Source: a virus. Taken from it: a DNA stretch of 64,000 nucleotides. Position 1 is the first letter of the stretch; each line of letters opens with the position of its first letter. The DNA is taken from positions 148 to 64,147 of the IMG/VR virus record IMGVR_UViG_3300032295_000534; one strand, given 5' to 3'. This document shows, piece after piece, positions 1-62,500 of the stretch. The translations under genes were made by a program, and so were the position numbers. A model generated the notes under the pieces. The model had not been told where the DNA came from. It saw only the letters and a program-made list of their open reading frames with translations, and did not search any database.

Positions 1-1614
1 TTCTTTAAAGCTTAAGTCGTCTTTGTTCAACGCATCCATCTTGGCGTTTAAACCATCAATAGCCATCGTGAGCTGCTCGGGGCTGTAACGAGTTGCGTTT
101 GTGCCTTCAGGTAAAGCCTGCGTTGTAGCAAACCCGGGAAGCTTGTTTAAACTCGTAACCGCAGCATGGATCTGGGGCTGGGACATCTGCATAGGATCGC
201 TGATGCCAGTTGTCCTAGAAAGAAAGTCAGCAAAGCTTGGAGCGGCAGTGTCTACGTTTTTGGCTTGAGCAGTCTCAATGATCTGCGCAGGCGTGTAAAC
301 CTCATTGCTGTAACCAGACTTCGTTCCAATCAATGCGTTTAAAGCATCTGTTTCTTTAGCTTTATCTGTGCCGGGCAGCGCATCAATGATGTCATCTAAA
401 GCATAAGAAGTTAGTGCTGGCTTACCTGTAGATGCACGGTGTTGCTCGATAGTCTTGGCCAAGTCAGGGCCAAGTTCATCCATGGTAAAGACGCCCAAGG
501 GGTTCTTGGTCATCTCTAACTGTTCGTCTAAACGTTTCTTAGCAGCAGCAATCTCTTCACGCTGTTGCTGTTGATATTCTTTCTGGGCTTCTATTTCATT
601 GCCAACAAACTCTTGACGCAGTTCTCTCATCTTTAATGGAGAGACAGCCGCACCCATCATGCCGCCAATTACCGAATCACGCACTGCGCTAGACAGTACG
701 CCTTTACCGATGTCTGTGGGAACGCCTGCTTCGGTCAGAGCTACGTTTGTTCCGGCAGTGCTAACCGCAGACTGAACACCCTCTGGAAGAGCCTCACCAA
801 CTGTGCTTCTTGCAATTGCTTCTTTCCAAGTTGGCTCGTCCATCTTGACGGGCTTACCTTGGACTTGAGGAGGCTTCTTAACAGCACGACCCAACAAAGC
901 TTCAGCACCGATAGCGCCTTCAAGCGCACCAGTGGCAGTAGATGCGGCTTGCCTTGGTAGATTCTGTAGAGAATACTCTGCGGCTTTTTGAGCCAAGCGT
1001 TCTGCCTCTTCTTCAGGAACTCCTTTGTTAAGAAGTTCTTGTTTAACTGTGGCGTAGTCTTGGCCTTTCTGACCACCTAGACCAACAGCGCCACCGATAG
1101 TGGCGGCAGGCAATGCGGAGGCAACCTTCTGCGCCGCTTTAGCAGACATGCCAAGGCCGGTAAGTCTGGCAACAGCCGCAGGGATAGTAGCTTGTGGGGC
1201 TAAGAATGTACCAGCCACATATGGAACCATAGAGCCAGCAGCTTGAGCAAGAGTCTGTAGCGGTGCTTCACCAACAGCACCAAGCTTGGCTTTGATCTCT
1301 TCTAAAGTGTTGCCTTCTGCGGCCTTCTCAAGTTGTTGGCGACGCTGAATCTCAGCCTGACGCTCAGGCGTCATGGTTTCACCAGCAAGTTGCTGAATAC
1401 CGCTTAACTTCTTGGAGACAACATTTTCTGCGCCAGCAAGATCGGAAAGGCTTTGAGTTGTACCGGCTACGCCCTGACCAAAGGAAAGGGCTAGGTCTTT
1501 AAGAGAGAACCCAGCACTAGGTTGCTTTACGGCTTCTTGAAAAGAAAAAGACTTCTTGTCCTTGTCTTCTTTGGGTGCGTTAAATGCCTCTTCAAACGAG
1601 AATTCTTTTGCCAT
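1..1614 (-). CDS. N-terminal part of giant virion/ejection polyvalent protein (runs off the left edge; not in ORF track)
   Basis: RBS CAGGAG at 1620-1625, ATG at 1614 (MAKEFSFEEAFNAPKE...). Frame open in all stretches I checked, ending ...MDALNKDDLSFKE at base 1. Gly/Ala-rich hydrophobic segments. Confidence 0.85.
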   Translation of the reverse strand, partial: MAKEFSFEEAFNAPKEDKDKKSFSFQEAVKQPSAGFSLKDLALSFGQGVAGTTQSLSDLAGAENVVSKKLSGIQQLAGETMTPERQAEIQRRQQLEKAAEGNTLEEIKAKLGAVGEAPLQTLAQAAGSMVPYVAGTFLAPQATIPAAVARLTGLGMSAKAAQKVASALPAATIGGAVGLGGQKGQDYATVKQELLNKGVPEEEAERLAQKAAEYSLQNLPRQAASTATGALEGAIGAEALLGRAVKKPPQVQGKPVKMDEPTWKEAIARSTVGEALPEGVQSAVSTAGTNVALTEAGVPTDIGKGVLSSAVRDSVIGGMMGAAVSPLKMRELRQEFVGNEIEAQKEYQQQQREEIAAAKKRLDEQLEMTKNPLGVFTMDELGPDLAKTIEQHRASTGKPALTSYALDDIIDALPGTDKAKETDALNALIGTKSGYSNEVYTPAQIIETAQAKNVDTAAPSFADFLSRTTGISDPMQMSQPQIHAAVTSLNKLPGFATTQALPEGTNATRYSPEQLTMAIDGLNAKMDALNKDDLSFKE

Positions 1615-1634
1615 TACAAACTCCTGTGAGGCTA

Positions 1635-3401
1635 TTATTGCACTGGTTCAAATGCTTTACCATTCCATTTTGCTGGGCCTCTGGCAGTTTGATAAACAGT
1701 TCCAACGTTTAAATCACTTGGCCCTGCTCCGGCTGGGATCGGCTTGGCTGCGGAAGGCAGTGTGTTTATACCACCACCGCTTACGCCAAATGTTTTATCC
1801 AAGTCGATAATAGCTTTGTCATACAACTCTTTTTGCTTTTTGCCATAAGGAGTGTCGCTCATTAAATGTTGGAACCGCTCATCAATTTTATTTTTAGCGT
1901 CAATATAAGCTTTGCTCTTGCGTGCGTCAGTGCCTTCCACAGAAGCTGCACCGCCAGCCAAAGCTGCACGTCTAATTGACTCCTCAATAGACATGCCTTT
2001 GTTTTCAGCCCTGATAGCTGCGGCACGGTTCATGAGATTGTCTTGAGCGCCCATGCCAGCAACCTTAAGCTGGTTCTTCATCTTGGCTTCTTCAAGCAAT
2101 CTGTTCTGACGCAGTTCCTCAGCCTTATCCTCAGACAAGTTAAGAGCCTTAGCAATCTCTGCGCTTTCTTTATTAATTCTGTCTTTCTCGGTTTTAGTAA
2201 GAGTGAACATGCCAAGACGTTCGCCGTACTGAGCTTCTTTCTTCTTAGCGCCAAGATCGAGAATTTTTTCCATCAATGCATCTTGTTGAGTCTGGCGTTC
2301 TTTCTGTAGAGCACCAACTCTAGCCGCACCAATAGCTCCAGACTGCGCCCAGTTACGGCCACCAGCTTGCGCTATTTGACCCAAGTACTCCATCAATGCT
2401 TCGTAACCCTGTTTAGGAGCGTTTAAACGTTCCTTACGGGCTTTAAGCTCTGACGCCATTTCATCGTAAATGGACGTGTCTTTTGCGCCAACTTCTTTTA
2501 AGTACTTCTGTTTAAACGCTTCTTCATCAAACTTTTGATTATCAGCAAGTGATCTTTGCAGGAAGTCACGACCAACACCAACTGATGGAAGCTTTGCCAA
2601 ATCAGTCAAGCCAGCAGGCATAGGAGCGCTATCTCTAGCGGCAGAAGCATTAACGTTTGCAGAAGGTGGACGATCTCCGGAAGTAACAAAAGGCACTGAA
2701 GACGATACTGCTGGAGTACCAGTCATACGTGGGTCTGGTTGACGACGGAAATTAGGATCGGTTGGGGATGGCTTTGGCCGCATATCATCTTTTAGCGCCT
2801 GCAACTGCATTTCTACTTCTTTGGCTTGTGGAGCGCCAGCAGATTTTAAGAAATCAGCTTTTTGTTTTAACTCAACCAGTTTTTTAACGCGCTCTTGCTC
2901 GGCTGCCCGAAGTTCTGCTTTGGCTTCTTCCTCCGGAGTTGGCCCACTAAAACCAGACAATTCTCCTGACGATGGAATGTTGCCACCATTGGTAAACCCA
3001 ATAATTCCACCACCAGCATAACCTTCACCTATGTTAGTTGGTAGGTTGTCAATGCCCTGCGCCTGCATGGGAGGGCGTGGTGCATTTGGTGGGACAGCCA
3101 TGGGCAGTCCTTCTTTACGTTGTTGCTGTTGAGCCTGTTGCATCATCTGCGCTTGGATAGCTTGACGGGCACGCTCTTGTAAGCTTTGAGCAACAGTGGG
3201 CATGTCTGTTGGAGTTTGCAATGCTTGTTGAATACCCGCAGCATTACGGCCTTGGGTGATGTCGTTTAAAGCAAGCAACTGGCGCAGATCCCGTGGGATC
3301 CCACCATTTTGTTGTTTGTCTTTCTCAACTTTCTGAGCCAAGGGCTGAGGATTGCCCAAATATGCAGCTGCAATCTTATTGACTGGTGTAGGTGTAAACA
3401 T
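1635..3401 (-). CDS. Probable internal virion (ejection) protein
   Basis: 588 aa, Q/A/K-rich helical, YAGGG/FTNGG motifs, lies between nozzle and giant protein as in podovirus ejectosome operons. Confidence 0.6.
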   Translation of the reverse strand: MFTPTPVNKIAAAYLGNPQPLAQKVEKDKQQNGGIPRDLRQLLALNDITQGRNAAGIQQALQTPTDMPTVAQSLQERARQAIQAQMMQQAQQQQRKEGLPMAVPPNAPRPPMQAQGIDNLPTNIGEGYAGGGIIGFTNGGNIPSSGELSGFSGPTPEEEAKAELRAAEQERVKKLVELKQKADFLKSAGAPQAKEVEMQLQALKDDMRPKPSPTDPNFRRQPDPRMTGTPAVSSSVPFVTSGDRPPSANVNASAARDSAPMPAGLTDLAKLPSVGVGRDFLQRSLADNQKFDEEAFKQKYLKEVGAKDTSIYDEMASELKARKERLNAPKQGYEALMEYLGQIAQAGGRNWAQSGAIGAARVGALQKERQTQQDALMEKILDLGAKKKEAQYGERLGMFTLTKTEKDRINKESAEIAKALNLSEDKAEELRQNRLLEEAKMKNQLKVAGMGAQDNLMNRAAAIRAENKGMSIEESIRRAALAGGAASVEGTDARKSKAYIDAKNKIDERFQHLMSDTPYGKKQKELYDKAIIDLDKTFGVSGGGINTLPSAAKPIPAGAGPSDLNVGTVYQTARGPAKWNGKAFEPVQ

Positions 3402-3414
3402 TTAAATATCCTCT

Positions 3415-6171
3415 TTATGGTTTCACGCCAAGGCCCAGCGTATCAAGCAATTTTGCTACAGTTGTTGCACCACCAGCGGCAGACTCCAAAAAGTTTGGCT
3501 GAGATAAGTTGTAGTTTGTTGCAGTGATTGGCAAACCTTGGAGCAAAGACTGCTGGAACTGAAGCATCTTATAAGGATTTGCCCTAGCTTCTTCAAACGC
3601 TGCTTTATCAGCTGCGATGCCTTCAGACTCAATACCACGTTGTACAGCGCCTAATCCAACCTGTTGTTGCAACTGACGCAAACCAAGATCACCGCTAGAA
3701 ATACCTAAGTTACCTTGAGTCTGAGCCGCTTGGAGGGCGGTGTTAAGACCAGCCAAACCTTGCTGTGCGCCAAACTGTCTGGATTGTTCTGCGGCTGTTT
3801 GTGCAGATTGACCAAACTGAGCGGCAGACTGAGCACCAGTCATAGCTTGCTGTTGTTGGAACTGACGCGCAGCTTCTTGAGCTTGCTGTGCAGACATACC
3901 ATACTGAGCCATCATCTGAGCCGCAGTCATCCCCTGCTGAGCGCCAAACTGTTTAGACTGCTCAGACGCTTGTTGTGCCTGCATATTACGGGCTTGGTCA
4001 GCGTTGTACTGAGCCATAGCGTTTTGATACGCAGTGTCGTAGCCCTTACCAGTGATGTTGGCTAGGTTAGTGCCAAGGTTACGCTGACCTTCTGCGGTCA
4101 AGATAGCCTGACGACCACCACCAAACGCACCAGCCTTGGTCATTGCGGCTTTGTTTTGCTGCTCAGTAATATCAGACTGACGACGTGCTTCAGCCAACTG
4201 TGGGTTAAGAGATGTCTGCAAGTACGGATTCATGTACTGCTGAGCTTGATCTCCACCAAATGTGCCTGATGTAAACGCAGTATTTTGATACTGACCGGGT
4301 GCTTGGAACTGGTTGGTAAAGTTGGTAGCCGTACCAGCCGTAGGCGCATTAAACTGATTTGTAAACTGCGCAGGGGTGTATGCCATGCCTTGCGCTTTAC
4401 CGGCAATATCTCCAGCAGTTTGAGCGGCAGTGCCTACGCTACCGGGAACTGATAAGTTAGCCGCAGTACCAAACGCTTGTTGTTGCAAAGGAGAAGCGCC
4501 TGCTGTTAATGGGCCACCATATTCTTGATATGGGGCTTCAGCCAAAGCCTGACCTTTACCTAGCATGTTGGTAATGTAGTCGCCAGCCCAGCTTGATGGG
4601 GCTTGCTCTGTACCGGTGACGCCAGCAGAAGCGGCTGTAGCGGCTGTAGGAGTTGTACCACCAGCGGCAAAACTTGCAACAGCACCGCCAGCAGCCATTC
4701 CACTAGATTTTTGACGCTCATCCATCAAATCACGAATATCCCGCGCTTCCACAAAAGCGTTGTATAAATTCCTTGGGGAATTCTGCATAAGATTTCGTTC
4801 AGCAATTTGGGGCAATCGATCTGAAAAATGTTTTTGCTGTTTTGCAAGGTGTTGTGGTGAACGTGCAGCTTTTAGGAATCTTTCAAGGTCGGCGGCAGTA
4901 AGTTCTGGAACTGGAGCGCCGATTGGATTTTGAAGTACAGAGCCGGGGACTGGGCCGTTTTCAACCCATGCCTGTGGCCGTTTTGGCGGTGCAAGCATGC
5001 CCCTTGCTGTCTTAGCCAATGAACCTAAGCCTCGTGCAATGGGTGCGGCAAACATCTCTGGGTGACTCCCCTCAAGACCTTGCTGTTTTGCCAAGTACTC
5101 ACGGTATCTTGGGTTTGACAAATCTCGCTCTTCAAGCACACTAAAGTAGTCGTCAGTTAATCCACCTTTGGCATAACCTTGAGCTAAACCACCGGGCATG
5201 AACTTATCTGCGTTGATTTTCTTGCCTTGTTTCTTTGTGCCGGTACGAGCCTGACGGATCTTATCCATCATGCTGTACAGTTTCTTAGCACCGGCATCAG
5301 AATTACCATTACCTAAATGGGATACAACATCCGCAGGGATAACAAATTCACCATGGCTAAGAGCGGCTGGTTGGTCTTTACCAATTTGAGCGGGGATTTT
5401 ATCTGCCATACCGTCAGTTTCACCTTGTAAATAACGACCTTTAGCCATGCCGCCAACTGCATAGTTGGTTGCAAATTCACTTGGGTTTGCCGTGCGCATC
5501 ATGTTTTCAGGCGCATCGTACTGGCGAGGCGTTGGCGCTGTGTTTACGGCTTTCATATCGTTGATAAGTTGCTGCGCAGCAGAAGTTGGGGCAGCGGGAG
5601 ACATACCACCAACCAAAGAAGTAAGACCGCCACCAACGGGAGCTGAACCTTTAGGCACAAAAGATACATCACCACCATAGCGAGTGCCACCAGAACCGGG
5701 GCGACGGCTTGGATCTGGCGCAGTAACCATGTTACGTACTGCGTCATACTTAGGAATGCCACCTTGGTAGCCAACTTTGTTTGCTTTGGGGTTCAAAGCA
5801 CCGGTCAAACCTGCAACACCGCCACCAAAAACACCTGCTAATGCTGCTAATTGTTTCCCGCTATAAGCTGTGCCAAGCAGTTTATTAAGGGCATCTGTAA
5901 TACCAGAGTTTGGCTCACTTGCACTACGGGGTGTATAGCCACCAGTGCCGCTGTTAACGGTAATTGTGCCGTCTGGGTTTACTGTGTAAGAAGTCCCTGC
6001 GCCACCATCACCAACTAAATATTCGCCGTAATCGCCACCGCCATAATCCGTAATGCCGGGGAAAGATGGCGTTACAGGAATGTCATAAGGATCAAGATTT
6101 GAATATGTTGGCTCATCATCATCTACGTATGAGTAGTTGCCATCTTCATCAGGGCCGACGTAGTATCCCAT
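3415..6171 (-). CDS. Probable internal virion / DNA-transfer protein, multi-module
   Basis: 918 aa; DGMADKIPA..LSHGEFVIPAD segment resembling a conserved tape-measure/ejection motif; Q/A/G-rich C-terminal half (YMNPY, GAFGGGRQA) like pilot proteins. Confidence 0.65.
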   Translation of the reverse strand: MGYYVGPDEDGNYSYVDDDEPTYSNLDPYDIPVTPSFPGITDYGGGDYGEYLVGDGGAGTSYTVNPDGTITVNSGTGGYTPRSASEPNSGITDALNKLLGTAYSGKQLAALAGVFGGGVAGLTGALNPKANKVGYQGGIPKYDAVRNMVTAPDPSRRPGSGGTRYGGDVSFVPKGSAPVGGGLTSLVGGMSPAAPTSAAQQLINDMKAVNTAPTPRQYDAPENMMRTANPSEFATNYAVGGMAKGRYLQGETDGMADKIPAQIGKDQPAALSHGEFVIPADVVSHLGNGNSDAGAKKLYSMMDKIRQARTGTKKQGKKINADKFMPGGLAQGYAKGGLTDDYFSVLEERDLSNPRYREYLAKQQGLEGSHPEMFAAPIARGLGSLAKTARGMLAPPKRPQAWVENGPVPGSVLQNPIGAPVPELTAADLERFLKAARSPQHLAKQQKHFSDRLPQIAERNLMQNSPRNLYNAFVEARDIRDLMDERQKSSGMAAGGAVASFAAGGTTPTAATAASAGVTGTEQAPSSWAGDYITNMLGKGQALAEAPYQEYGGPLTAGASPLQQQAFGTAANLSVPGSVGTAAQTAGDIAGKAQGMAYTPAQFTNQFNAPTAGTATNFTNQFQAPGQYQNTAFTSGTFGGDQAQQYMNPYLQTSLNPQLAEARRQSDITEQQNKAAMTKAGAFGGGRQAILTAEGQRNLGTNLANITGKGYDTAYQNAMAQYNADQARNMQAQQASEQSKQFGAQQGMTAAQMMAQYGMSAQQAQEAARQFQQQQAMTGAQSAAQFGQSAQTAAEQSRQFGAQQGLAGLNTALQAAQTQGNLGISSGDLGLRQLQQQVGLGAVQRGIESEGIAADKAAFEEARANPYKMLQFQQSLLQGLPITATNYNLSQPNFLESAAGGATTVAKLLDTLGLGVKP

Positions 6172-6182
6172 AATTATTTCCT

Positions 6183-9100
6183 TTATTCGGCTTCACCGCC
6201 AACGGGGGTTAAATCAATATCCGTCCCAAACAAGTCTTCCCCAAAAAGATCTTTGTAGGATTTTATCTTAGCAACTTCATTATTGCTACTCATCATTGCC
6301 AACAGCGCTTGCAGCTGGTTGTTTTTACTGGAAGCTGCTTCAGACTGCGCTCTTGCCACTGCATCTGCTTTTGCTTTAGCGGCTGCGGCTGCTTGAGATT
6401 TAGCAAGTGCAGCAGCTTGGGATTGTTGTTGGTTCAAAAGGTTCTGGAATAGCGCCTTAGTCTCCGCAGACTGTTTGCCCAGTCCAGATGTAAGCTGTCC
6501 ACCAAACTCAGTTTCCAAATCCGCAATTCGTTGAGCCATCTCTTCTTCGGATAAACCAAACTCAGCTAGTAGCTCTTCTCTTGTCTTTTCAAGACTACCT
6601 TCAATATCTTCAAAATTACCACCAAACTCAGTTTCTAAGTCTGCAATTCTTTGGTTAATCTCGTCTTCTGTAACGCCAAACTCAGTTAGTAGCTCTTCCC
6701 GCGTCTTGCCAAGACTGCTTTCAATGTCTTCCAGATTACCGCCAAACGTGGTTTCCAAATCTGCAATCCGTTGCTGCATTTCTTCTTCCGACAACCCAAA
6801 TTCAGCAAGTAAATCTTCCCTTGTTTTTTCAAGGCTGCTCTCAATATCACCAAAGTTACCGCCAAACTCAGCTTCTAAGTCCGCAATGCGCTGGTTAATC
6901 TCGTCTTCCGTCACACCCAATTGGTCAAGCAAGTCTTCTCGTGTTGTGCCAAGACTTTCTGCAAGTTCATCAACACCAGTCTGTGTTTCAGCAAGTTTGG
7001 ACTCTAAGCCTTTAGTAGACTCGGTAAGCTGCCCACCAAATTCAGACTCAAGATCAGCAATCCTTTGCTGTAAACCTTCTTCGGTAATGCCAAGCTCGTT
7101 AAGCAAGTCTTCTTTAGTAGTTCCTAGGCTTTCCGCAAGTTGAGCGCTGAAGTCTTCTTCCAGCCCAGTAATTTTTGATTCAATACCTTTAGTGGATTCA
7201 GAAAGCTGACCGCCAAACTCAGACTCTAAATCTGTAATCCGTTGTTGCAATCCCTCTTCCGTAACGCCAAGTTCTTTTAACAAATCATCTTTGGTTGTGC
7301 CAAGGCTTTCAGCAAGCGCATCTACGCTGTCTTGAGTGCCAGCAATCTTAGACTCCAAACCTTGAGTAGCGCCGGTAAGTTGTCCGCCAAATTCAGATTC
7401 CAGATCGGCAATACGTTGTTGCAAACCCTCTTCTGTAGTACCCAGTTGCGTAAGAAGGTCTTCTTTAGTCATGCCAAGACTTTGAGCAAGATCTTCTTCT
7501 GTCAAACCAGTTGGAATTTGAGACACCGCTTTATCAACAATAGACTGCACGTCATCAATTTTTATTCCGGGATTTTCTGCAAATGTTTGAGACACGATTG
7601 ACTGGACATCTTGCTCCGACACGCCTTTGGGAATGTCAATAGAGTTAATGGCAGTCTGTACGTCCTCTGGTGTGGCAAAGTTTTGCCCGCTAATGATTTT
7701 GGTAATGTCGTCAGGCGTGACTGCGGTCTGTTTAAACTGTTCAAGCTGTTTAAGAAAATCATCTAACCCGCTTGGTTGTTGCTGAACCGTGACTGGGTCT
7801 GTTTCTTCTGGAGGGATGTAGCCCTCACCGCCCGGTTGGAAATAGCCGGGGATTAAGCTGGCATTAAAATCATCTGGATCACCGGGGCCAAAACCTAATG
7901 CAAGTTTTGGATCTGCGGAGGCTGTATTAACTGTAGAGCCAAAGGCTTGAGCCGCGCTAAGAAGAGCCGCAGGATTACCGCTATTAACTGCGTTGGTAAG
8001 ACGAAGAGCAGATGCCGCAAGCTTTGCGTCACTACTACCCGTCAATGAACTAGCCGCATCAAGAAGCCCCGCATAGTCTCCTTTGGAATACGCATTTGCA
8101 GCGTTAAGTACCTTTACACCAGTGCTAAATTCAAAGGGTAAACTAGCCCCAGCATACCCAGCCGCAGAGTTAATAAGTCCTGCAACGTTGCCTGTTTGAA
8201 GCGCATTTATACCGCCAAGAATGTTTTTGGCATCACCAATTGGGATTCCAGCAAAGTCTGTAAACCCTGCCCCGCCAGCAGCACCAAGAGTGCTAAGCGC
8301 TGCTCCTAATAAATTTCCTTGCTTGACTGCAATTAAAGCGTTTAAACCTTGAGCAAAAGGAGCTAAGCCGGGAACAAAAGAAGCAATTGATAACAGCGGT
8401 GCAATTTTATCCATGTCACTACTAGACGCACCTTGCGTATAAAAGTACGGATTGCCTTGCGCATCAAACTGAACACCGTAACCGGTGTTGCCTTTACCCT
8501 CATAAGTTCCACCAAAAAAGTTACCCGTTTGGCGTTCAGTGTATGTATTGGGAACTGCTTGACCAGTGGCTTTGTTGCCAAAAGTCTCGCCAGTTTTAAT
8601 CATTGGGACGCCATCTTTTTCAATGACTAACGTTGGGTCAATTGGTACAAATTGAGGATTCTCATCCATACCCATTGGCTGTGAGTACGTGCCGTACACA
8701 GGTTTTAGCTGAGATTGATTAAGATACTGAGGAACCATTATTTGATTGCCTTCAGAATCAGTACCCCCGGGTACTGTAATGTAGTAATTACCATCAGCAT
8801 CTTGGTTAGCTAACTGGCCGTTAAAACCCATTTTTACTTCGGCTTGTTCATACCGAGGTACTTTGCCAAACTGCTTGATATCGGTAATCCCAATCCCAGC
8901 AAGAATCTTAGCCATGTCTGCGGCGTTAGCTTCTGCGGAGCCATGGCCTGCGCCAGACCATTTGTCAGTAATACCTTGACCTAAAATTTGCTTGGTTAAT
9001 GCGCTTGTGTAATCAACTTTTGGTGCAATAGGCGTAGTAGGTGCAGCAGGAGAAGGCGTAGTTGGCGCTACAGTAGGACTTGCGGGAGCAACAGTTGGCT

Positions 9101-9407
9101 GCTTAGAAGGCTGCGTAAATTTAGTAACTTCTAAGTCTGACTCACCAAATATATCCTTCATTACAGGATCAACAGTAGGTGGCGTTGGCAGGGTAGCAGG
9201 GGTAGCTGGTTGGGATGCAAAGAGCTGCTGAACAACATCGGGTGCGACTGGCTGGGGCGTTGGTGCAATTAACTGTGGCGCAGGCTTAACAACCGGCATA
9301 GGCGGGTTAATGATGTTAGCCAACATCTCGTTTTGATACAGAGCATCCTCACCAAAACTATCAGCGTCTTCGTATATGCTTTGCAAAAAATCTCTTTGAA
9401 TAGCCAT
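6183..9407 (-). CDS. Probable virion protein with Pro-rich N-terminus, hydrophobic middle and acidic helical repeats
   Basis: 1074 aa ORF in the structural operon; repeats listed separately. Confidence 0.6.
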   Translation of the reverse strand: MAIQRDFLQSIYEDADSFGEDALYQNEMLANIINPPMPVVKPAPQLIAPTPQPVAPDVVQQLFASQPATPATLPTPPTVDPVMKDIFGESDLEVTKFTQPSKQPTVAPASPTVAPTTPSPAAPTTPIAPKVDYTSALTKQILGQGITDKWSGAGHGSAEANAADMAKILAGIGITDIKQFGKVPRYEQAEVKMGFNGQLANQDADGNYYITVPGGTDSEGNQIMVPQYLNQSQLKPVYGTYSQPMGMDENPQFVPIDPTLVIEKDGVPMIKTGETFGNKATGQAVPNTYTERQTGNFFGGTYEGKGNTGYGVQFDAQGNPYFYTQGASSSDMDKIAPLLSIASFVPGLAPFAQGLNALIAVKQGNLLGAALSTLGAAGGAGFTDFAGIPIGDAKNILGGINALQTGNVAGLINSAAGYAGASLPFEFSTGVKVLNAANAYSKGDYAGLLDAASSLTGSSDAKLAASALRLTNAVNSGNPAALLSAAQAFGSTVNTASADPKLALGFGPGDPDDFNASLIPGYFQPGGEGYIPPEETDPVTVQQQPSGLDDFLKQLEQFKQTAVTPDDITKIISGQNFATPEDVQTAINSIDIPKGVSEQDVQSIVSQTFAENPGIKIDDVQSIVDKAVSQIPTGLTEEDLAQSLGMTKEDLLTQLGTTEEGLQQRIADLESEFGGQLTGATQGLESKIAGTQDSVDALAESLGTTKDDLLKELGVTEEGLQQRITDLESEFGGQLSESTKGIESKITGLEEDFSAQLAESLGTTKEDLLNELGITEEGLQQRIADLESEFGGQLTESTKGLESKLAETQTGVDELAESLGTTREDLLDQLGVTEDEINQRIADLEAEFGGNFGDIESSLEKTREDLLAEFGLSEEEMQQRIADLETTFGGNLEDIESSLGKTREELLTEFGVTEDEINQRIADLETEFGGNFEDIEGSLEKTREELLAEFGLSEEEMAQRIADLETEFGGQLTSGLGKQSAETKALFQNLLNQQQSQAAALAKSQAAAAAKAKADAVARAQSEAASSKNNQLQALLAMMSSNNEVAKIKSYKDLFGEDLFGTDIDLTPVGGEAE
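6490..7500 (-). repeat. About 7 intragenic repeats (SLGxTREDLLxxxGxTEExxQQRIADLExEFGG); last four have a 120-bp period
   Basis: CCAAACTCA-like anchors at about 6502, 6622, 6742, 6862; alternating VTEDEIN/LSEEEM units suggest a 240-bp duplication. Confidence 0.9.
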
Positions 9408-9416
9408 GTTTAAACC

Positions 9417-10082
9417 TTAAGGAGGCGTTGGGCGTGGATCTGGTAACCGCGCAACAAAGTTTACAGCCATTACCGCTGAAGCAACAGCAGGATATGGAGC
9501 AGATGCGGGTATTGCCTCCATCGTCACGTTTGTATCATCTGCGCCCCAGTACATCTCAATGTATTCATTAGCCGCTAAATCAATGTCAAAGATCCAGTTA
9601 ACATTCATGTGGTTGTCTGAGCCTTCAACCGTATACCTATGAGATGAATAACCAATTGTTGTTGTCCCACGCTTAATCCAAATTTGTACGTCTTTGGCTG
9701 ATGAATTGGTGCTTTTTAACTGGGCCGACAACTGAAAGTTATACACGCCACCAACAGTCACTTCAATCTTTGACGTACTGCCAGACTGTAGTGCCACAAA
9801 GTTATTCAGGTATGTCTGGTTAAACGTGATGGGATAGCCTGTGTCTACAGCCGCCAACGTCTGGTCTGCGGTGTTAAAGAACAAACCATTGGGAAAATTA
9901 ATGTTTGCGGGATCAACATCATCGCTAGTTCGTAGCTGGGCAAGAATGGCATCTAGTCTGTTGAAATACAAACGCAAGACATTGTTAAGTTGATCTATGT
10001 ATTGAGCGTTGTACTGGACAGGAGCCAACGGCAAGTTGGGCGCGGCAACCTGATTAAGCTCATATACGGAGGTAACAATCAT
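9417..10082 (-). CDS. Tail-associated structural protein with C1q/TNF-like C-terminal beta domain
   Basis: PNLPLAP..Y..QLNNVLRLYF N-terminus; GVYNFQLSAQL, LAANEYIEMYW strands. Confidence 0.55.
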   Translation of the reverse strand: MIVTSVYELNQVAAPNLPLAPVQYNAQYIDQLNNVLRLYFNRLDAILAQLRTSDDVDPANINFPNGLFFNTADQTLAAVDTGYPITFNQTYLNNFVALQSGSTSKIEVTVGGVYNFQLSAQLKSTNSSAKDVQIWIKRGTTTIGYSSHRYTVEGSDNHMNVNWIFDIDLAANEYIEMYWGADDTNVTMEAIPASAPYPAVASAVMAVNFVARLPDPRPTPP

Positions 10083-12202: not shown

Positions 12203-12211
12203 GGATGACCT

Positions 12212-49596: not shown

Positions 49597-49616
49597 ACAG
49601 ACCTTAAGGAGAGTAA

Positions 49617-51492: not shown

Positions 51493-51501
51493 GGAGAGAC
51501 C

Positions 51502-52764: not shown

Positions 52765-55700
52765 ACAACTACGCAGAAAAGCAAGGAAGATCTATAACAA
52801 CAAAATGGTTCCCGAACATATCAACCAACACAATCAACGTAAGTGGGTGCGCTCAGTCTTGCAATTGGGGGATCGTTGGTTGATTGCTAAACCGATAGGG
52901 AGTCTAAATGCAACCCAAAGTAATTCTTGAATTTACTTACCCTGACGATGAAGATAGATTGTTATTTGCAGTCAAAGGGCCGGAAATGTATAAGGCGCTC
53001 ACAAATATTAAGATGGCTGTAACTGGGGAGTTCCCCCATAAGGCTGATTTAAACGCAGTGTTGAGTCGTGTACGTGATTTAACAAACCAAATCTTTGAGG
53101 AGTTAGGTGAGTGACACCCCTATCAGCGGAATACACAAGGTGTAAACCTAAGAAGCCTGATGCCAAATGCGAGAACTGCAAGAGGTGGCTAGACCATCCC
53201 AAGCAGACTCGCGGCAATGGCATAGTCAATGTACAAGACAGCAAGAGCAAGGCTTGCTTCTACGTTCCAGTATCACTACAGGAGGATTCATGACACAACA
53301 ACGAAAAATTGGTAATCGCCGCAGTATGAATGTTGGCGGTCTTATCTTTCATATCCGTGATGATTTGGGGTTTGTGAAGATGGCATCTGAGTTTTACCTT
53401 TTGGGTAGCCAAACACAATTGAACCTGCTTGATGATTGGATCAATGCGTTGGAAGAAATGTATAACGCAGAACGCAACGAGGCCGGAACATTGAAAGAGC
53501 GGATGTTTCAGCGCAGACTGGCAAGACAACTCCGTGTTGTAGACGAGGAGGATGAATGACATGGCCCTTCCCCCCATTTCCAAACCCAAAGGACACGGGG
53601 AACCGAGTCCCAAAGTTCAACCCAGAGAACCACGAAGACGCCCCCTTGGTGAAAGCACAGCAAGGCAGACCATTGCCATGATGCGTTCAATAGCAAGCCA
53701 CAAGCCGATCAGTCCGTTCCATTTGATGGCGGCTGATGAGATGGAGCGTTTGTTAAATGAAGTTTTAGAGTACAGGAGGAAGAAATGAACATTTCGGCTG
53801 TTAACAAATACGAATTGGTACTGCATAACGTACCAATGTGTGCGGTGTGCAACAAGCCAGTCGAGCGTGTCGAGTCCATGTACGACATAGCCTATGGCGG
53901 AAAGCGGTTTCGCGTGTACTGCCACGGCGATATGGAGGAGGCGATGCTTGACGATGTGACGATTGAAGATTGTGATTCTGTCCAGTTTAGTCAGGCGTTC
54001 ATAGACAAACTGCCGCAGAAACAACTGGAGGCCAAATGAACAGAGAAGACATTATTCGCATGGCACGGGAGGCGGGGGCAGTGTTCCCTGCCGATGGAAG
54101 TTATCACAGGTTTGAGTCTGAAGAAAACCTTGAACACTTTGCCGCCCTTGTCGCTTCTGCCGAGCGTGAGGCGTGTGCAGACATCGCTGAGAATTGGAAC
54201 AGTAACGGATTCCCCCGCACTGGGGTTGCTGAACAAATCCGAGCAAGGGGACAAGCATGACTGATGAAATGCAAAGAGTATGGGAAGCACTACGCGCAAT
54301 CTATGGCATGGACTTAACTGCGGCAACGCTGGTAGTGCTTACCAAAGACGGAGAAACTGCCGTGAAATTCCAAACAATTTACTTTCCGCAACAGGAGACA
54401 GAGAAATGACTACGCTTGGAGAATATTTGCGCGGGTTAAGACTGTGCCAAACAAATGTGTCACTGGAAAAGATGTCACTAAAAATTGGATGCACAAAGTC
54501 GTATTTGTCTGACGTTGAAAACGACAAGATTGTGCCCCGATTATCTAAAGCCAAGGATATAGCAAAAGGATACAAAACAAGCCTTAATCAAATGGGGAAT
54601 TACTTATGAACACAAATCGCAGTGGTAATTTACACGAGGTAATGCGCCAAGCCGCATGGGATTCGGCAACCGTAGTGCCTGAAGGTGACATACGAGCCTT
54701 AAAGCACCGAATCCATGAACTGGAGGGTGAGTTGCTTGGCTATAAAAAAATCGTGGCTGACCAAGACGCAATGCTAGAGCGCCAAACAGCCCGCATCGTT
54801 GACTTACAAACACATATTGCAAACTTAGAAGGAGAGTGAATAATGGGCGAGCTACATTTACCCGAACTTTGGTATGCCAAAGCGCACATGCCAACTGAGA
54901 GAATTTTTAAAGACTATTTCTGTGACAAGATGTGCCCCGGCTGGAGCACCACCCCGCTTGCAGGTTTGCATACTCTGGCTATTAAACGCATTGCAGAACT
55001 CAACACTAAGATGCCCGACCAGTGGCAATACACCATCCTTGGTTGGGAACTAAACAACTCAAAAACAGAAACGGATGGTGAAGAATTATGAGAAAAAGCC
55101 TTCATTTAACAACAGAATTTTTGCCTAGAAAATGGCCGTGTTTTGCCATTGGATTTATTGCCGCTGGAAACGAATTTGTACTGCATTTGTACTTAATCTG
55201 TTTCCGTATTCGGTGGGGGTATTAATATGAGCGAACCAGTTGAATATCAGTACAGGACTCGACCAGATTGGATTCCTGAATGGAACGGATGGAATACATG
55301 TAGCAAAGAATCGGCAGAAGCGTATGAAAAAAACCCATATTTGCATGACTGGCATTACGAAGTCCGAAGGCTTTACATCACCTCACCACAGCGCAAGCCG
55401 TTAAGTGATGAGGAGATAGGCGCAATCCTTGAAGATGTTAACGCCTATGGCACACGGCTATATACATTTGCCCGAGCCATTGAAGCTGCACACGGCATTA
55501 AGGAGCAAGAATGACTGAATGGACTAAAGAAGAGGACGAAGCTTTCAACGAAGTTGAGAAGCACAGTAATCTTGGCAAACAGATCCTGCGGGATCTTGGT
55601 CAGCCATATTATTTTGATATCTATGTATCGCCTTCTCAGCGTAACGCAGTATTAGAAGAAGTGGCTAGAGAGTTTGACAAGATGCCGTTTGGTGACACAG

Positions 55701-56294
55701 CGGCATCGTTTGCTAAATTTGTAAGGAATATGAAGACGTGAACGGTTTTGTAAAAAAACAATTAGATTTAAATGGGCAGCAGCTAAATAAACATCAGTTT
55801 AAACAATGCGACAAATGCGACCAGAGCAAACCACCAGAAGGAGGAATCCAAATGAATCCTAATAAGTGGTACTGTGCCGCTTGTTGGACTTTGAGAGCAA
55901 CAAGAAGACCAAAGAATGCCTAGACCCAAACCACCATCATTATTAAAATCTAGATATATCAGGATGTCAGATGAAGAATGGGAAAAATTTAAACAGATGG
56001 GTGGCGCAGATTGGCTAAGAAGAATAATGAGAACAAGACCAGCCCGGTACTACGAAGTGTTTAAACATACGAAAGAAAGCAATGACTGAAAGCAAAAAAG
56101 AATATTGTGAGTTCATAGGAAATAAAGCCTTTGAAGACGACGGAGGTTGGAGCTACGAAGTTTGGCAGGCAGCCCAGCAGGCTTTGTTTAAACGCATAGC
56201 TAACCGGTTTCTTGGCTACAAAGACATTGATTACACCGGTAGTGAGATAGCTCGTTACGTTAACTTCTTGGCGAAGCAAGATGTACCGGAATAG
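52751..56294 (+). CDS. Run of about 17 small hypothetical proteins including an XRE HTH (54406-54609), Zn-ribbon proteins (53111, 53785, 55738) and an RHH-like protein (55916-56089)
   Basis: Coupled overlaps; LGEYLRGLR...SYLSDVEN; CxxC pairs; IRMSDEEWEKFK..GGA.WLR. Confidence 0.6.
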
Positions 56295-56568
56295 ACACCT
56301 ACTAGACATTGTCAGGGAGTCACCATGCCAAATCTGCGGAGTGCAGGACGGCACGGTGGTTGCCGCTCATTCCAACCAACAGCGAGATGGCAAAGGAATG
56401 GGACTGAAAGCCCACGACTACCGCATTGCGGCACTGTGCTACACCTGTCATGCCAAGATGGATCAAGGCTATGAATGGTCAAAGGACGCCAAGTTCAAAG
56501 CTTGGGATGAAGCCCACCGCAGAACCATTGGCTGGCTCTTTGAGCGGGGTCATATCACTGTGAAATAG
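56281..56568 (+). CDS. YbcO/DUF1364-like HNH-fold nuclease
   Basis: CQIC, VVAAHSN, GKGMG.KA.D, ALC..CH. Confidence 0.75.
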   Translation: MYRNRHLLDIVRESPCQICGVQDGTVVAAHSNQQRDGKGMGLKAHDYRIAALCYTCHAKMDQGYEWSKDAKFKAWDEAHRRTIGWLFERGHITVK

Positions 56569-59500
56569 TTTTCTTCAGTTCCCTGATACTGGATGTCATG
56601 GCATTCTGAGCCTCAGTAATAGCCAACAGGGAGTCTCTCTTCTCTTCAGAAGACATATCCGATGAGCGGATTTGGATAGCCGCTTCACGCATGACTTTCA
56701 TCTGTTTCTCAACGCTACTGATGTAACCTCTCATGCCAAACAGCTGAGCGTTCTTCTCCATGTAAGCGCCAAGGTCTTCAGCATTTCCTGTGCGCTCCAT
56801 CAAGTTGACTGTTCTTACAACCTCATCAACAGAGTTCTTCAGTTCGTAGTAAGCCGTGACTGTACCCTTGGCTTCTTTGTCAACTGCGAATCGTTTGATG
56901 ACAGGCATTTGCTCAAAGCGCTTGGCAACTTTAGGTGATTCATCATTCCCGAGGAGGATCGCATCAATCAAGTCAACTGCGTACATTCCCATGGAGCCTG
57001 TGTATCCCTGCATGATGTGATCAATCATGATGGGTGACTCACCTAGAATCTTGCCCATTTTCTTAGCCAACTCTGATGTTCCGGGGGATACTTGGAATTC
57101 CTTGGTAACACCTTCCATACCTTGACCAACGATGGGTCTCATCGTGAAGAAGGAATAGTTTGTACGTGCCTCAACGATTGGCAAGAATGTCTGAGGTATT
57201 GGGTTGATACCGAAGGTACTAACCAAGTTCCGCTTCATTGAGTCTGCCAAGTCTTTGCCTGTATCGTTACCAAAGGAATATTCAAGCAAACGCTCAGGGA
57301 TTGTTTTAAACAGCACACCAACCTCAAACGGGATTGGGATACGTATTCCTACGGATGGGAACAACCAATTGTTGTCGCGTGTCTCTTGCTCTTGCTTGAG
57401 GTATTCCTCTTCATCATGAGTCAGGAACCAATACATAGCAGACAAAGCCATGAGGGTTGCACCACGGATGAAGAATGATTTCTGAATTGCAGCCGCATCT
57501 TCACTAGCCATCTTGCCAAAGGCGGCACGGTAGAACACATCCAAGCCCTGCATACGTGCATTAAGGAATGGAACAGCCGCAGTCAAGATGCGAACAATCG
57601 CTAGGTTACCCTTGCGGTTGAAGTTCAGTACTTCCATGGCACGGAAGATGGCTTCTGCCTCGTTGCCTGTACGCTCCAAGGTCGCTTTGTACACCGCCAT
57701 GCGGGTAGCGGCATCAGATGCTTCTGTGCCCTTTTCCAGACCACGCCAGAGGCTTGTAAACGGCTTGAGTGCTTTCTCTGCACCACGCTCAGTTCCACTC
57801 TCACGACGAAGAGCCGCACCCAAAACAGAGCCGCTGGTTTGGATGTCTTGAGCAAACTCATAACCACCAATCACACCGGCCTTACGAAGGGCAAGATAAG
57901 CTGGGTCTTTACCACCGATGGCTTTGCCAAAGTTGGAGATGGTAGAGGCGATAGGTGTCATCTTTGCACCGCTAGTCACCCATGCAGACAAGGAGTCACG
58001 CATCAAGTTAGCCATCATGAAGCCGGGATCTTTGGTGACCATGTTCCGGAGCAAGTTAGCTGGGGCGGAGAAGATGCTCAGGAATGGCAGTTCTGGGAGG
58101 TTTAAACTCTTAACTGCGTCAATGAACAGCTGGTCAGCCACGTCGTAGGAGACAGGCTTACCTTTCTCCAAGACAGTCACAACTCCGGGAGCGTATGACA
58201 CGTCATTACGCTTCTTGGCTTCACCAAGTTGTACAGCCACACCGACAGCACGCTGTGCCGCAGTGTTCTTCATACCGGCTTGGATGATTGACTGAGTGTT
58301 ACGCACTACGGTCTCAAGGAAGTCGGCCAGAGGAGCTTCTTGTTCTTCCTTAATTCCTTTGAGCTTCTTAGGGGGAGTAACTCCGGAGATGTTCTGGAAC
58401 AGCTTAGGGCCGACAGTATCTTGTCCATCAAACTGACGATAGAACGGAATGTAGTCTGAGTAACGCATGAACTCTGCGGCTCTCTCTTTAGCGAGAACGC
58501 CAGTGGCTACTGCGTAATTCATCAGTCCGTTGTTGTACTCAATCCAGTCTTTCTGGACTTGTTTAAACTCAGGATACTTCTTCTCCAGCTCTGCTGCGTA
58601 AGCAATTTCTGCGGCTGTGTAGGTGTGATCTTTGCCGGTGTCTAACAGGCGTTTACCCCGTTTAGAGCCAGCCCAGAATTGGTAGGTTTGATAGATGCGT
58701 GGATCACCGATCTTAGCCAGAGGCATCAGGATCTCAAGCACACCCTTCTCACCCTTAGCGTTGCTGATAGTGGTGAAGCCATTGTCAAACACAGGAATGC
58801 CACCCTGACCCTCGATGCCACAAGCCATAGCCGCAATAGCGGCGGCATTGTCAGACATGAGAGCGGCAGATTCTGCGCTTGCATCAGCAAGGAGAGCGGC
58901 TCCCCCCATCTTCTTGGCAAGCTCTTTGTCGTAAACACCGAGTTGGTTGTAGCGGTTGAGCCATTGTTGGCGCAGCGCATCCACACTCTGTGGTTTAAAC
59001 GCATTAATAATGCGCTCAAAGAAACCTTGTTCTTCACGGACGGTGGTGATGCGGTTGATACTAGAGTTGATAGCCGCACCGTTAGGCAAGGAATCCACTT
59101 CATCTTTAACACTACGCAGGCTAAGACGAACGTCTGGGCTAGTCCTGTCAAATGTTCCAATGTTGCCGGTAGCAGACTTAATCTGCACTGGGCTATAGAC
59201 TGCGAGGTTCTTTTGGTTGCCTTGCTTGATGTAGAAGCCATCAAACCCTGCGGCTCTAATAGCGTCTTGGACACGGTCAGACTCAAGTCGAGCCACATTG
59301 TTGGCAAGATCTTCTCTGTCTATGTTGCTTAAACCAAGAGCCGCAATGTGGTCTGGGTTCTCATAGTCAAATGGTCGTTCAGCCCGTACATATACAGGCA
59401 TGATGTTTTGACCAGCTTCTGGGAATAACTTATCAGCCGCAAGCTTCAGGAAGTCCAAAGCCTCGCCCTGCTGATTGGGTGATCTTATTTCCTTGATAAG

Positions 59501-62500
59501 AGCCGCAGACTGTTTGTTGTTTCCATAGGAAGCACGAACATCCGCAATGGCTTGTGTCTTGGCTTTATCCAGTTCCTGTGCAGAGTAATCTGAAAGATCA
59601 CGTTCCAGTGCTTTGTTTTCAGCAGATGTTTCTGCGTACTCACCAGCAAACTCAGGATTGGTCGTCAAGAAGATAGCGCCAGCCTGCCTTGGTTTAAACG
59701 CAGTAATGTCCCGAGCAGTGCCGTGGTACATGACCATTGGCGTGCCGTCGTCATTGACGATCTTGCTAAGACCAAAGAACTGTTTAAACGCAGGTGTATC
59801 CGGCGCTTTACGTAGGCTGTATTTAGCTTGAGTTGGAACACTGCCACGCTGTTGCTCAGGTGTCAGCACTTCCTTTAGCTCTGTAACGGGCGCATCAACT
59901 TTAGCGTCACCAGTCATCACAAACTCAAGAGGTGGCAAAGCCGCCTTCTGATCTGCAAAGCCTCGCTCAATAAGGCTCAAGCCTTTTGCTTCTGGACGGA
60001 AGTTCTGCCATGCATTCTGAGCACGGGTTTCTGCTGTCAATGCCCAACGCGCAAACGGATCTTGCGTCATAGCCATGTGGTTGCGCCAAGCGGCTGCTTC
60101 ACCATTTGGGCCAAACTGCGTTTCAGTCAGGTTGTGGGCAAAGTAGTCATGAACTGCACGGAGCAGATCGTTGTACAACATTGGCCTACCGTTTACATCT
60201 TTAAGGCCGGAATCTTTGAGCAGCGGGTGGTTCTTGAAGTTAGAACCGGGCGGCCCAAATGTCTCAGGAGATGTGGCGTAAACCTTGAATCTGTTGTTTA
60301 CACTCACATCACGACGGACTTCATCGCTGTTGGCGTAAGGCTCGTCAATGGTATCCATCAACTCAACCTTGATGGGCATGACTTGATATTGCTCTTTGAG
60401 AGAATTTGCCAACGCAGTGTAGGCTCGTTTGACCAAAGGATTCTTCAGGTCGTTGATTGGCATGGCATCAAATGCCCTTGACAATTTCTCCTGTTCTTTA
60501 ACCTGCTTGGCGTTAAGTGGCTTCTGTTTAAACGTTGTAACAGGAGCTTTTGTTAAGTACTCAGCAATCAGTTTGGGAGTTACTGTGTCACTCGCTTGCT
60601 TGGTAAGAATGTCGCTTTCAGGGTAGGCGACTTTGCTGTACGGGATTCTTGCTCCATCCCCTTCTCCGTAGACGTAGAGGCGTTCAATAGTGCGTCCGAC
60701 TCGGCTAGAGCTGTCTCCCACCAACTCGTGGACTCGCTTGACTCGCTCTGCGAAGGATTTGTAGTTTGCTTGTTCATCGCCTTCTGTCCTTACAAAGTAT
60801 GTTGTCAGTTTGTTGTCGGTAATTGTAAAACCTTGCAAGCCAGACTCATCAATTACCCGTGAAATTTGGCTGTTGTTTAGTTGTTTCTTGAGGCCAATTT
60901 CATACACTGCGGTAGCGTATGAGCCATCACCAAAGTCATGGCCAAACTTCTGCGCAGTCTCTTGACGCACATGGATCTGTTGTTGGTTATAGCTATCAGC
61001 AAACTTAGCCAAAGCCGCCATCACATCGTTCATTTCTCTTTCAGAGAATGCAACGCCAACGGAGATAGATGGCTCACGGTCAGACAGATAAACGCCCTTG
61101 GCGTACTCAATGTTGACCTTAGCGCCAGTACCGCTTAACAAGAATTTCAAGGAGCTTTCTGCGACTTGTTGCAGTACGGTATAAGCCTCTTTATCACGCC
61201 CCATGGCACGTTGATACAACTCACGCAGGCCGGGGATGGAGTTGGTAACCGCAGAGAGGTTGAATGTCAGCTTCTCACGGATGTCTTTGGCTTCACGCAG
61301 GCGCACACCACCTTCAGGTGTAAACGCTTTGTCGTAGCTTGAACCACCATTTGATACAAAGTCTCCAGTGCCAGATCCAACCCAATCAGGGTTGTCAATG
61401 CCACCAGCAATCTTCATTACCTTTTCACGGGTATCCTCAAATGATTGCTCACCAGTCTTGTATTTAGTCCACTCTGCACGAATCTTAGGCTTGATAGTGC
61501 TCTTGATGTTCTCGCCAAACAAACCACGCACAGCTTCCCATGTGATGGATTGCATCTCACGGGCACGAACTTTCTTTTGCTGAGCGGCTTCACGATAGGC
61601 ATCTGCAATGATGCCGTATGTGCCACCAACACCAAGGTTGATGTTCTTACCTGTACCACCAAAGTTGTGAACAACCTCTTGGTCTGTACCAGCCAACGCC
61701 TCAAACAAGCCTGCGGCAACTGCGTGAGTGTCAATGGTTACGTGGCCGATATCGCTGTTAGGCGCGGCAATGTTGTTGTAGAAGGAGCGGATCTTGTGCT
61801 CTTCGCCCAACTGTTCGCTAATGTTCTTTCGGCTTCCATCACGGAAGATGCTGACAGTCTTCTTGATTGGGTCGTATGTAGACCACATCATGATGGCAGG
61901 TTCGCCATCATTCTTACGAACAAAGTCGCCAAAACCACCCTCTGGGGTAACGATTCTGTATTGACGGGAGTTGTAAGCCTCGTCATAAGCACGTATAAAC
62001 GCAGCCGCATCATCTTGCGTCATGTCGTTTAAAGTTGTGCCTGCACGAGATACGTTTTTGATCTTGTCAAAAGCAGCCTGACGTTTCTCACGTTCCTTAC
62101 GGCTTGTGGCTTCCTTAACATAGCTCTCAGCGTACTTGAGCATGTTTGCATCCCATGCCTTGTTGCTTTGCTCAGTCAAGATGTCCAACGCACGCTCAGC
62201 CATGGACACGTTCTGGAACCAGTCTTTCTGTGGAGACATGGCGGCCATAATGCCAGCCACTTGTTCCATGGAAACTTTATATTCCTTGCTCATGTCGGTG
62301 GCAATACGGTTTGCACCGTCATACCAAAGCTTACTGCGCTCACGGATATCAGGAGGAACTTTGTTGTAGAGATACAGTAAGTTGTTAATGATGTTGCGTT
62401 TAAACACATTAATTACATCATTGGGCGGTGTATTGTTTGGCACAAATCCGTAGCCTTTAATGGCTTGGATGGTGCGTTTATACATGTCGGGATTAGCCTT

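Follow-up and report, generated by a model that had tools for sequence, protein, structure and literature searches.

GTKTAAAC, an iterated DNA word in a freshwater phage lineage, and an SprT-like zinc-ribbon protein as its candidate reader

Short DNA words that recur about once per kb, also within genes, and that have a dedicated reader protein are known as uptake sequences (uptake signal sequences, USS, and DNA uptake sequences, DUS) and as Chi sites. The stoperators of Cluster A mycobacteriophages, dispersed short sites, some inside genes, for one phage DNA-binding protein (L5 gp71, Bxb1 gp69), are 13 bases long and asymmetric; they follow the direction of transcription, and the protein that binds them is a temperate phage's immunity repressor. 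SPRTN binds DNA by structure, not by sequence. In cyanobacterial chromosomes the highly iterated palindrome HIP1 (GCGATCGC) and its alternate palindromes are, in the main texts devoted to them, octamers over-represented tens of times (Elhai 2015, PMC4390886; Xu et al. 2018, PMC5861425). Here we describe the palindromic octamer GTTTAAAC, which is dispersed in 49 exact copies through a 64,000-nucleotide stretch of viral DNA (henceforth the window) from IMG/VR record IMGVR_UViG_3300032295_000534, the genome of a phage of the tailed type. We propose, with a probability of roughly 0.6, that this array would provide docking sites for a zinc-ribbon protein of the SprT/Wss1 type encoded by the phage itself.

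The array can be set beside each of these systems. Uptake sequences and Chi sites are host-encoded, non-palindromic and polar, whereas none of 401 sampled host genomes (order Burkholderiales) is enriched in the phage word. Stoperators resemble it in having dozens of short copies dispersed over the genome, genes included, but the phage word has 8 bases and is palindromic or occurs in both orientations (9 versus 10 copies of its main variant); moreover, the phage has no integrase match (PF00589 and PF00239, six frames, E≤0.1), and the candidate reader is predicted to have a zincin fold instead of being a helix-turn-helix repressor. With SPRTN and Wss1 the protein would share a predicted plan in which a zincin-like domain at the N terminus precedes a small, putative zinc- and DNA-binding module at the C terminus; unlike them, it has lost the HExxH motif. 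HIP1, as its main texts describe it, shares with the phage word the use of several frames and of intergenic DNA, upkeep at the level of DNA and enriched one-letter variants. However, the phage word lies in phage genomes from hosts of many phyla and not in a host chromosome, its best variant is at position 3 and not at the ends, and it tracks an SprT-like zinc-ribbon protein with no cognate methyltransferase match among three families. The likeness to HIP1 put forward in the first-pass annotation is only formal: neither a match to the three methyltransferase families searched nor an enriched genome among the sampled Burkholderiales was found. The HIP1 papers do not mention phages in their main texts. 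An actinobacteriophage 'SprT-like protease' (Lizalica gp46 of the Cluster AZ Arthrobacter phages, bioRxiv 10.1101/2025.05.26.655371) is described with an HEXXH motif and a domain for DNA binding at its C terminus, and the main text of that preprint gives no DNA word ('TAAAC' and 'TTTAC' occur 0 times). Likewise, the main text of the paper on Methylophilales phage Venkman, a carrier of the word discussed below, mentions neither the word nor an SprT-like protein, and our literature search found no description of the word in phages or of its pairing with an SprT-like protein.

The enrichment of GTTTAAAC is real and strongly non-random. All 49 copies listed in the first-pass annotation are present at their coordinates. 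No other 8-mer is as common in the genome of 64,147 bases, and the next palindromic octamer reaches 6 copies. Dinucleotide-preserving shuffles (n=100) gave a mean of 1.35 copies and a maximum of 4, in agreement with the one or two copies first estimated from base composition, and Markov models of order 0 to 2 predict 1.2–1.4. The expectation under an order-6 model is high (41.7) because the 7-mers GTTTAAA and TTTAAAC (58 and 59 copies) are almost entirely GTTTAAAC itself. Nor is the excess common to NTTTAAAN words, since the other fifteen have 0–5 copies each.

By our own gene calls, 35 sites lie within genes, where one possible phase has 17 of them and the other 18; 14 are intergenic or on gene boundaries (one of these, at 38687, is actually inside an SprT-like gene absent from the calls). 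Non-coding DNA makes up only about 8% of the window, and its site density is about five times that of coding DNA. When synonymous codons were shuffled, 4.3 sites remained on average and never more than 10 in 1000 trials, compared with the 35 observed in genes, and shuffling codon order within genes left a mean of 0.9; thus, both codon choice and protein sequence are bent towards GTTTAAAC. Where the protein permits the word it is usually there (35 of 48 positions): 18 of 21 x-Phe-Lys-(C-start) contexts are filled, for which codon usage predicts 2.2, as are 17 of 27 (Cys/Ser/Arg/Gly)-Leu-Asn contexts, for which it predicts 0.7. The enrichment thus survives the refuting tests suggested in the first pass, and the first-pass view of a word that belongs to the DNA and is not a peptide motif is supported by association. 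The accompanying statement that all three frames carry it holds for two phases and intergenic DNA; the Val-stop frame occurs only at gene ends and never inside a gene.

The one-letter variants define the word more closely. The position-3 variant, written GTGTAAAC or GTTTACAC depending on the strand, is the second most enriched word in the phage. Since this variant is enriched and the double variant GTGTACAC is not (0 copies in the phage; 6 versus 16 expected in the relatives described below), the selected word is GTKTAAAC, and the palindrome may be the T form of an asymmetric word and hence incidental. Variants at the ends of GTTTAAAC are enriched 2–3.5-fold, compared with 11-fold for GTGTAAAC, and the flanks of the sites prefer YGTTTAAACR and GTTTAAACGC. 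Among the relatives, variants at positions 2 and 4 are depleted, GTTGAAAC has an observed/expected ratio (O/E) of 0.28, and GTGTAAAC/GTTTACAC reaches 215 copies versus 19 expected. The pair GGTTAAAC/GTTTAACC is nearly absent from the relatives (L002–L081; 1 copy versus 23 expected), yet it has 4 copies in the phage.

The relatives are 80 IMG/VR contigs with a large terminase (TerL) 88–97% identical to that of the phage. They contain 622 copies of GTTTAAAC in 723 kb, and in 78 of the contigs it ranks first among palindromic octamers. In alignments of the window sites with these contigs the word was kept in 362 of 537 cases, as against 28% for other 8-mers, and in the least similar alignments in 57% versus 9%. 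The commonest replacement at lost sites was the K variant (39 of 175). Sites also turn over, the word at 33407 being present in 0 of 73 aligned relatives. This pattern, seen in aligned sequences, points to selection on individual sites. Three distant relatives without an SprT-like gene, DSL-LC04, 023Pt_psg01 and Pag-Yong1, have 0, 3 and 0 copies, respectively. The survey of relatives and candidate hosts suggested in the first pass thus came out word-rich for the relatives and negative for the sampled Burkholderiales genomes, a negative that stands without genomes G384, G299, G031 and G210.

A gene that varies together with the enrichment, as the first-pass annotation had hoped to find by comparing phages, emerged from word-rich viral contigs. 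A scan of viral contigs for three close words gave 94 stretches, 26 of them with at least four dispersed sites and with guanine-plus-cytosine (GC) contents of 0.21–0.60. Five of the 26 have no clear homology to window proteins (one, L275, has a single weak match), and three of these five encode a frame that matches SprT-like families weakly, keeps IHELIH intact and has a tail of the form CxxC...CxxC. A seed profile made from these three frames, whose contigs are word-rich and unrelated to the phage, picked out a single frame of the window (38073-38750, E 3.7e-12; next best 0.55), one that had been overlooked in the first pass. A four-sequence profile comprising the three seed frames and the window protein then matched 15 of the 26 word-rich stretches (three by construction), 2 of 27 stretches with two or three sites, 0 of 41 single-cluster (tandem-repeat) stretches, 0 of 120 bacterial stretches and 0 of the 3 word-free distant relatives. 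It matched 27 of the 80 TerL relatives; the remaining loci are short and may not reach the position of the gene. Searching ten further word-rich contigs over their whole length added one match. In the reverse direction, searches of viral contigs with a single distant protein found 2 loci and those with a three-sequence alignment 5.

The window protein matched 163 records of cultured phages by tblastn, mostly annotated as 'SprT-like protease' and including, by organism name, phages of Arthrobacter (70), Microbacterium (45), Streptomyces (11), Bordetella (9), Pseudomonas (8), Escherichia (5) and Dinoroseobacter (3). Ten were sampled. Exact words number 20 in Dinoroseobacter phage R26L, 34 in Venkman, 7 in Enterobacter phage Arya and 4 in Achromobacter phage Mano, where a reversed control word has 0–1 copies. 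Three actinophages lack the exact word and have GTGTAAAC/GTTTACAC as their top 8-mer, with 22 copies in Microbacterium phage Zeta1847, 25 in Arthrobacter phage Sue2 and 39 in Streptomyces phage UNTPL, where about 0.1 are expected; the strand ratios of the variant in the three actinophages are 6:16, 8:17 and 23:16. The K variant thus links the actinophages with the proteobacterial phages. The SprT-like frame is the only window frame common to these three actinophages (tblastn E≤1e-3). Neither word nor variant is found in PSA20, MW2 and Epa5. All seven proteins from carriers of word or variant end in KKQxTR and a cysteine ribbon, while the tails of the other three are cysteine-free, of another kind and without KKQxTR. 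Because the cultured homologues split by tail, the word goes with the tail and not with the zincin domain alone. In Pseudomonas phage PSA20 and Bordetella phage MW2, which encode the SprT-like form without the zinc-ribbon tail, a different word, AAGAAGTA/TACTTCTT, is enriched (13 and 12 copies versus about 0.6 expected); it could be an address word of their own or a promoter element.

The candidate protein has 203 residues, with a zincin-like N-terminal domain, a C-terminal KKQGTR and then a cysteine ribbon (CVCPSC...LC). Aligned tails have Q159, T161, R162, C171, R176 and C193 invariant and C168 nearly so, and the KKQxTR zinc-ribbon tail would be a zinc- and DNA-binding module. At the catalytic position the phage and its nearest relatives have AMLCH and a sister group AQLCR or SQLCR, whereas HExxH is kept in the next outgroups (HELCH, HEMCH) and in 10 of the 10 cultured homologues sampled. 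The word is about equally dense in contigs of all three catalytic-site kinds (0.7–1.6 per kb). Since density is equal despite the loss of HExxH, the array is independent of proteolysis; from these alignments, reading of DNA rather than proteolysis appears to maintain it, and the lake-lineage protein is best seen as a putative protease-dead reader. An AlphaFold2 model built on an alignment of 22 family members has a mean predicted local distance difference test score of 88.4 and a predicted template modelling score of 0.86. Its structural matches, confined to the N-terminal 160 residues and all of one fold family, include SPRTN (6mdw; Z 6.8, root-mean-square deviation 4.3 over 105 residues), Wss1 (5xbn; Z 6.6, 3.1 over 102 residues) and archaeal minigluzincins at Z of about 6 (4jiu, Z 6.3). 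Two other proteins of the window with HExxH motifs, that of 40213-41169 and the polyvalent protein, do not match the SprT profile, and the protein at 43630-43956, adjoining a triplet of words, was rejected as a reader, having no cysteine and no zincin features.

The placement of the sites (Table 1) is compatible with binding along the DNA and with some contact with transcription. In addition to the word before the gene 6183-9407, words stand immediately before an ATG at 23182, 25543 and 37041, four in all, and two of them (23182 and 25543) contribute their first G to complete an AAGGAG ribosome site. The SprT-like genes of Arya and Mano each have a word just upstream of their annotated ribosome site. 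Further close pairs are found at 46087/46105 and 49013/49047. In R26L, UNTPL and Sue2 the words are spaced more evenly than expected by chance (coefficient of variation 0.37–0.56; at most 2 of 2000 random placements were equally even); they are strongly clustered in the early arm of Venkman, and close to randomly spaced inside each arm of the studied phage. That sites stand both within genes and where operons meet suggests that the DNA is occupied over its full length. The best promoter-like site heads the rightward operon with the SprT-like gene, and a variant word, GTTTACAC at 37579-37586, covers its -35 hexamer, which suggests that the SprT-like protein may autoregulate its operon through this word. 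Promoter-like sites over 20 kb number 18, fewer than in shuffles (21.2), so the words are not promoters in general. The promoter and terminator placements, as single cases, fit a DNA-bound protein that also touches transcription.

Table 1. Positions of the word, its candidate reader and other features in the window; strand blocks follow our own gene calls.
Feature	Position	Strand	Remarks
GTTTAAAC array, 49 exact copies	46..62405		late, structural arm (1-36 kb): 16; early, replication and polyvalent-protein arm (36-64 kb): 33
Position-3 variant, 19 copies	293..63357		9 as GTGTAAAC, 10 as GTTTACAC on the + strand; about 2 expected
Gene for SprT/Wss1-like protein, 203 residues	38142..38753	+	ATG 38142 after GGAG; one word at 38687
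Word directly 5' of ATG	9408..9415	minus	gene 6183-9407
Close word pair 36370/36405	36370..36412		3' end of gene 36372-37040
Word triplet within 91 bases (43545, 43589, 43628)	43545..43635		junction of converging rightward and leftward operons
Terminator-like hairpin	43503-43523		directly before the word triplet
Best sigma-70-like promoter in the 36-56 kb scanned	37579..37609	+	TTTACA, 18 bases, TACAAT; 10/12, consensus match only
Portal	31760-34249	minus	
Large terminase TerL	34258-35757	minus	
T7-type primase-helicase	43946-45628	minus	
Gene block	1-37 kb	minus	late and structural genes
Gene block	37.7-43.5 kb	plus	early genes
Gene block	43.6-49.6 kb	minus	
Gene block	49.6-56.5 kb	plus	
Gene block	56.5-64 kb	minus	polyvalent protein

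These observations can be drawn together as follows. GTKTAAAC, often as C-GTKTAAAC-G, would be an address word at the DNA level. Selection would preserve it in the phage lineage as an array on which the SprT/Wss1-like protein of the phage docks, most likely reading the word by its C-terminal KKQxTR zinc-ribbon tail. In most phages of the family, where HExxH is kept, a protease would thereby be held on phage DNA; in the freshwater lineage, where the catalytic residues are gone (AMLCH), the protein would act as a protease-dead reader. The sequence-specific factor postulated in the first pass thus has, by association, a candidate that co-occurs with the word in unrelated phages and would bind it. 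As a possible, though doubtful, extension, phages of at least three phyla might share a two-part system in which the GTKTAAAC address and the KKQxTR zinc-ribbon reader tether a DNA-dependent protease to phage DNA, not host DNA, where it would remove host proteins (defence nucleases, roadblocks, crosslinks); the lake lineage would have kept address and reader and discarded the protease, so that occupancy itself would be functional.

Several points weigh against this proposal. We infer binding of the word by the protein, and what such binding would achieve, from co-occurrence only, whether the search started from the word or from the protein. For nine of the 26 word-rich viral stretches no family member was found in the contig; eight of the nine contigs are fragments, 15–58% complete, but the ninth, word-rich contig G419 (GC 0.29), is rated 100% complete and has no SprT-like gene. 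Conversely, two contigs found through the protein alone (L333 and L336) have no word in the 11 kb and 5.4 kb examined. The cultured sample is small (10 of 163, taken at even steps down the ranking), and Arya and Mano add exact-word counts only. No Pfam SprT-like family, PF10263 included, matches the window at E≤1, although relatives from other word-rich contigs show a weak match to PF10263, below the cut-off (E 2e-5 to 9e-4). A structural Z of 6–7 is middling by the tool's own scale, Foldseek E-values of the model are 0.1 or weaker, and a profile search of PDB sequences returned chance-level rows only. Finally, with HExxH lost in the phage, protease function elsewhere cannot explain its array.

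Each of the other explanations we considered accounts for a part of these data. It is unlikely, in our judgement, that some other factor reads the word and the SprT-like gene merely travels along, be it another phage protein that escapes detection through its small size or divergence or a conserved bacterial protein such as RNA polymerase. A hidden partner would be possible given that most small early genes have no Pfam match (among 20 small early proteins compared with Pfam the sole match was a LexA DNA-binding domain), and the variant contains TTTACA, near a -35 hexamer, one copy lying on a promoter-like -35; the two word-free contigs with the protein family also fit such a factor. Set against this are the actinophages, which share no other frame with the window, the association of the word with the zinc-ribbon tail within the SprT-like family, and the number of promoter-like sites, which is lower than in shuffles. 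A drive of the HIP1 type, linked to a methyltransferase or to repair, of phage or host origin and without a reader protein, is very unlikely. HIP1 itself has been linked to methyltransferases, according to the main text of Elhai 2015 (PMC4390886), and a conversion drive would deplete neighbouring words, as is seen for GGTTAAAC/GTTTAACC and GTTGAAAC in the relatives. The first-pass statement that the phage has no methyltransferase holds for PF01555, PF02086 and PF00145, the three families searched (six frames, E≤1). Furthermore, no single host enzyme explains a word found in phages of hosts from Actinobacteria to Proteobacteria with GC contents of 0.34–0.71, the conservation of individual sites far above background speaks for selection on sites and not for a diffuse drive, and the strongest variant is at position 3 whereas HIP1 varies at its ends.

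Still more remote is the idea that the phage copies a word abundant in the chromosome of its host, for instance one that serves DNA uptake, acts as a Chi-like site or is an iterated palindrome there; the density of 0.77 per kb in the phage resembles that of uptake sequences. The richest of the 401 sampled Burkholderiales genomes has 109 copies in 3.5 Mb, most fall below the reversed control word, the distant TerL relatives without an SprT-like gene are poor in the word or free of it, and the cultured carriers infect very different hosts. A scan of bacteria and archaea for three close words gave at least 120 stretches, so that a word-rich host may lie beyond them; among the matches listed none was related to the window by tblastx, and the bacterial triple-word stretches were mostly tandem repeats. 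The listed matches include an Aquimarina metagenome-assembled genome (G003, the genome of stretch L151) with 438 GTTTAAAC versus 49 reversed control words in 2.1 Mb, many of them in pairs at a distance of about 134 bases; these resemble a small repeated element flanked on either side by the word more than dispersed sites. Also among them are anammox genomes (Brocadia and related; L090, L134, L137, L178 and L190), in two of which (L090 and L137) the word stands in short 9-base tandem runs. We give next to no credence to a role in RNA or translation, as a frameshift site or a spacer at ribosome sites. UUUAAAC is a classic -1 frameshift heptamer, 17 or 18 sites are in the xGU UUA AAC phase and four words directly precede an ATG. 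However, the other phase, which cannot slip in that way, is used equally, 13–14 sites are non-coding, sites are found in either orientation with respect to genes, slippage has no use for the leading G or the K variant, and frameshifting in dozens of genes would presumably be harmful. Docking of the phage's own SprT-like protein is the reading that we prefer.

The phage that carries the array can be described in some detail. The record, 64,147 bases in total, exceeds the window by its first 147 bases; it is classed in IMG/VR as having direct terminal repeats, its CheckV completeness is 100%, and in our own check of the record we found a terminal repeat of 123 bases. Besides the genes in Table 1 it encodes a Sak annealing protein, a RusA resolvase and a CobS-like ATPase with a VWA partner, and no tRNA gene was found in the window. 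A polyvalent protein with ART-PolyVal and LPD38 domains spans the junction of the record: its frame (56555-64000 plus 1-1614, minus strand) is open at both window edges and appears to be a single gene of about 3000 codons across the circular junction; some 300 residues inside its 56558-64000 segment lies the motif HEAIH. The plus-strand gene 40213-41169 stands between those of the CobS-like ATPase and the VWA protein. Its product, of 318 residues, contains HELLH, matches no Pfam family and may be a zincin partner of the CobS-like/VWA pair. Just upstream of terL, 35754-36017 (minus strand) encodes a small protein consisting of the LexA DNA-binding domain alone (PF01726, E 1.6e-11), and beside it lies a palindrome, TGCGAACGTTCGCA (36187-36200). 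In the terL-side loci of the relatives the DnaA-box word TTATCCACA and parts of it rank with the most enriched 8-mers, which fits the cluster of DnaA boxes noted in the first pass by the early promoter (37114-37570).

Near-identical DNA occurs in lake, freshwater and subsurface metagenomes (15 studies in a search of sequencing runs), while megablast against cultured phages gave no match. By TerL the nearest named phages, at no more than 58% identity, are DSL-LC04, 023Pt_psg01 and pelagiphages of the HTVC023P type. Planktothrix phage Pag-Yong1, Synechococcus phage MinM2 and Planktothrix phage Pra-JY27 are of equal length (65,014 bases) and gave identical match statistics, and the GC content of Pag-Yong1, 68.5% over 50 kb, is odd for phages of these cyanobacteria. 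Venkman shares with the phage the SprT-like protein, Sak (48% identity), the primase-helicase and four frames of the structural arm, and these common genes are a weak hint at a methylophilaceous or other betaproteobacterial host.

In an abundant group of lake phages, then, GTTTAAAC constrains codon choice and even protein sequence. It is also the site of the rare cutter PmeI, present once per 1.3 kb in the phage, and could act as a signature for recognising such phages. Cultured carriers are available for direct testing of the proposed docking, among them Venkman, R26L, Arya and many Arthrobacter, Microbacterium and Streptomyces phages. If it is true, this would be the first case known to us of a protein of the SprT/Spartan type reading a specific DNA word, and the array, which comes with a candidate reader open to testing, would be a phage counterpart of the iterated palindromes that have long gone unexplained in cyanobacteria.

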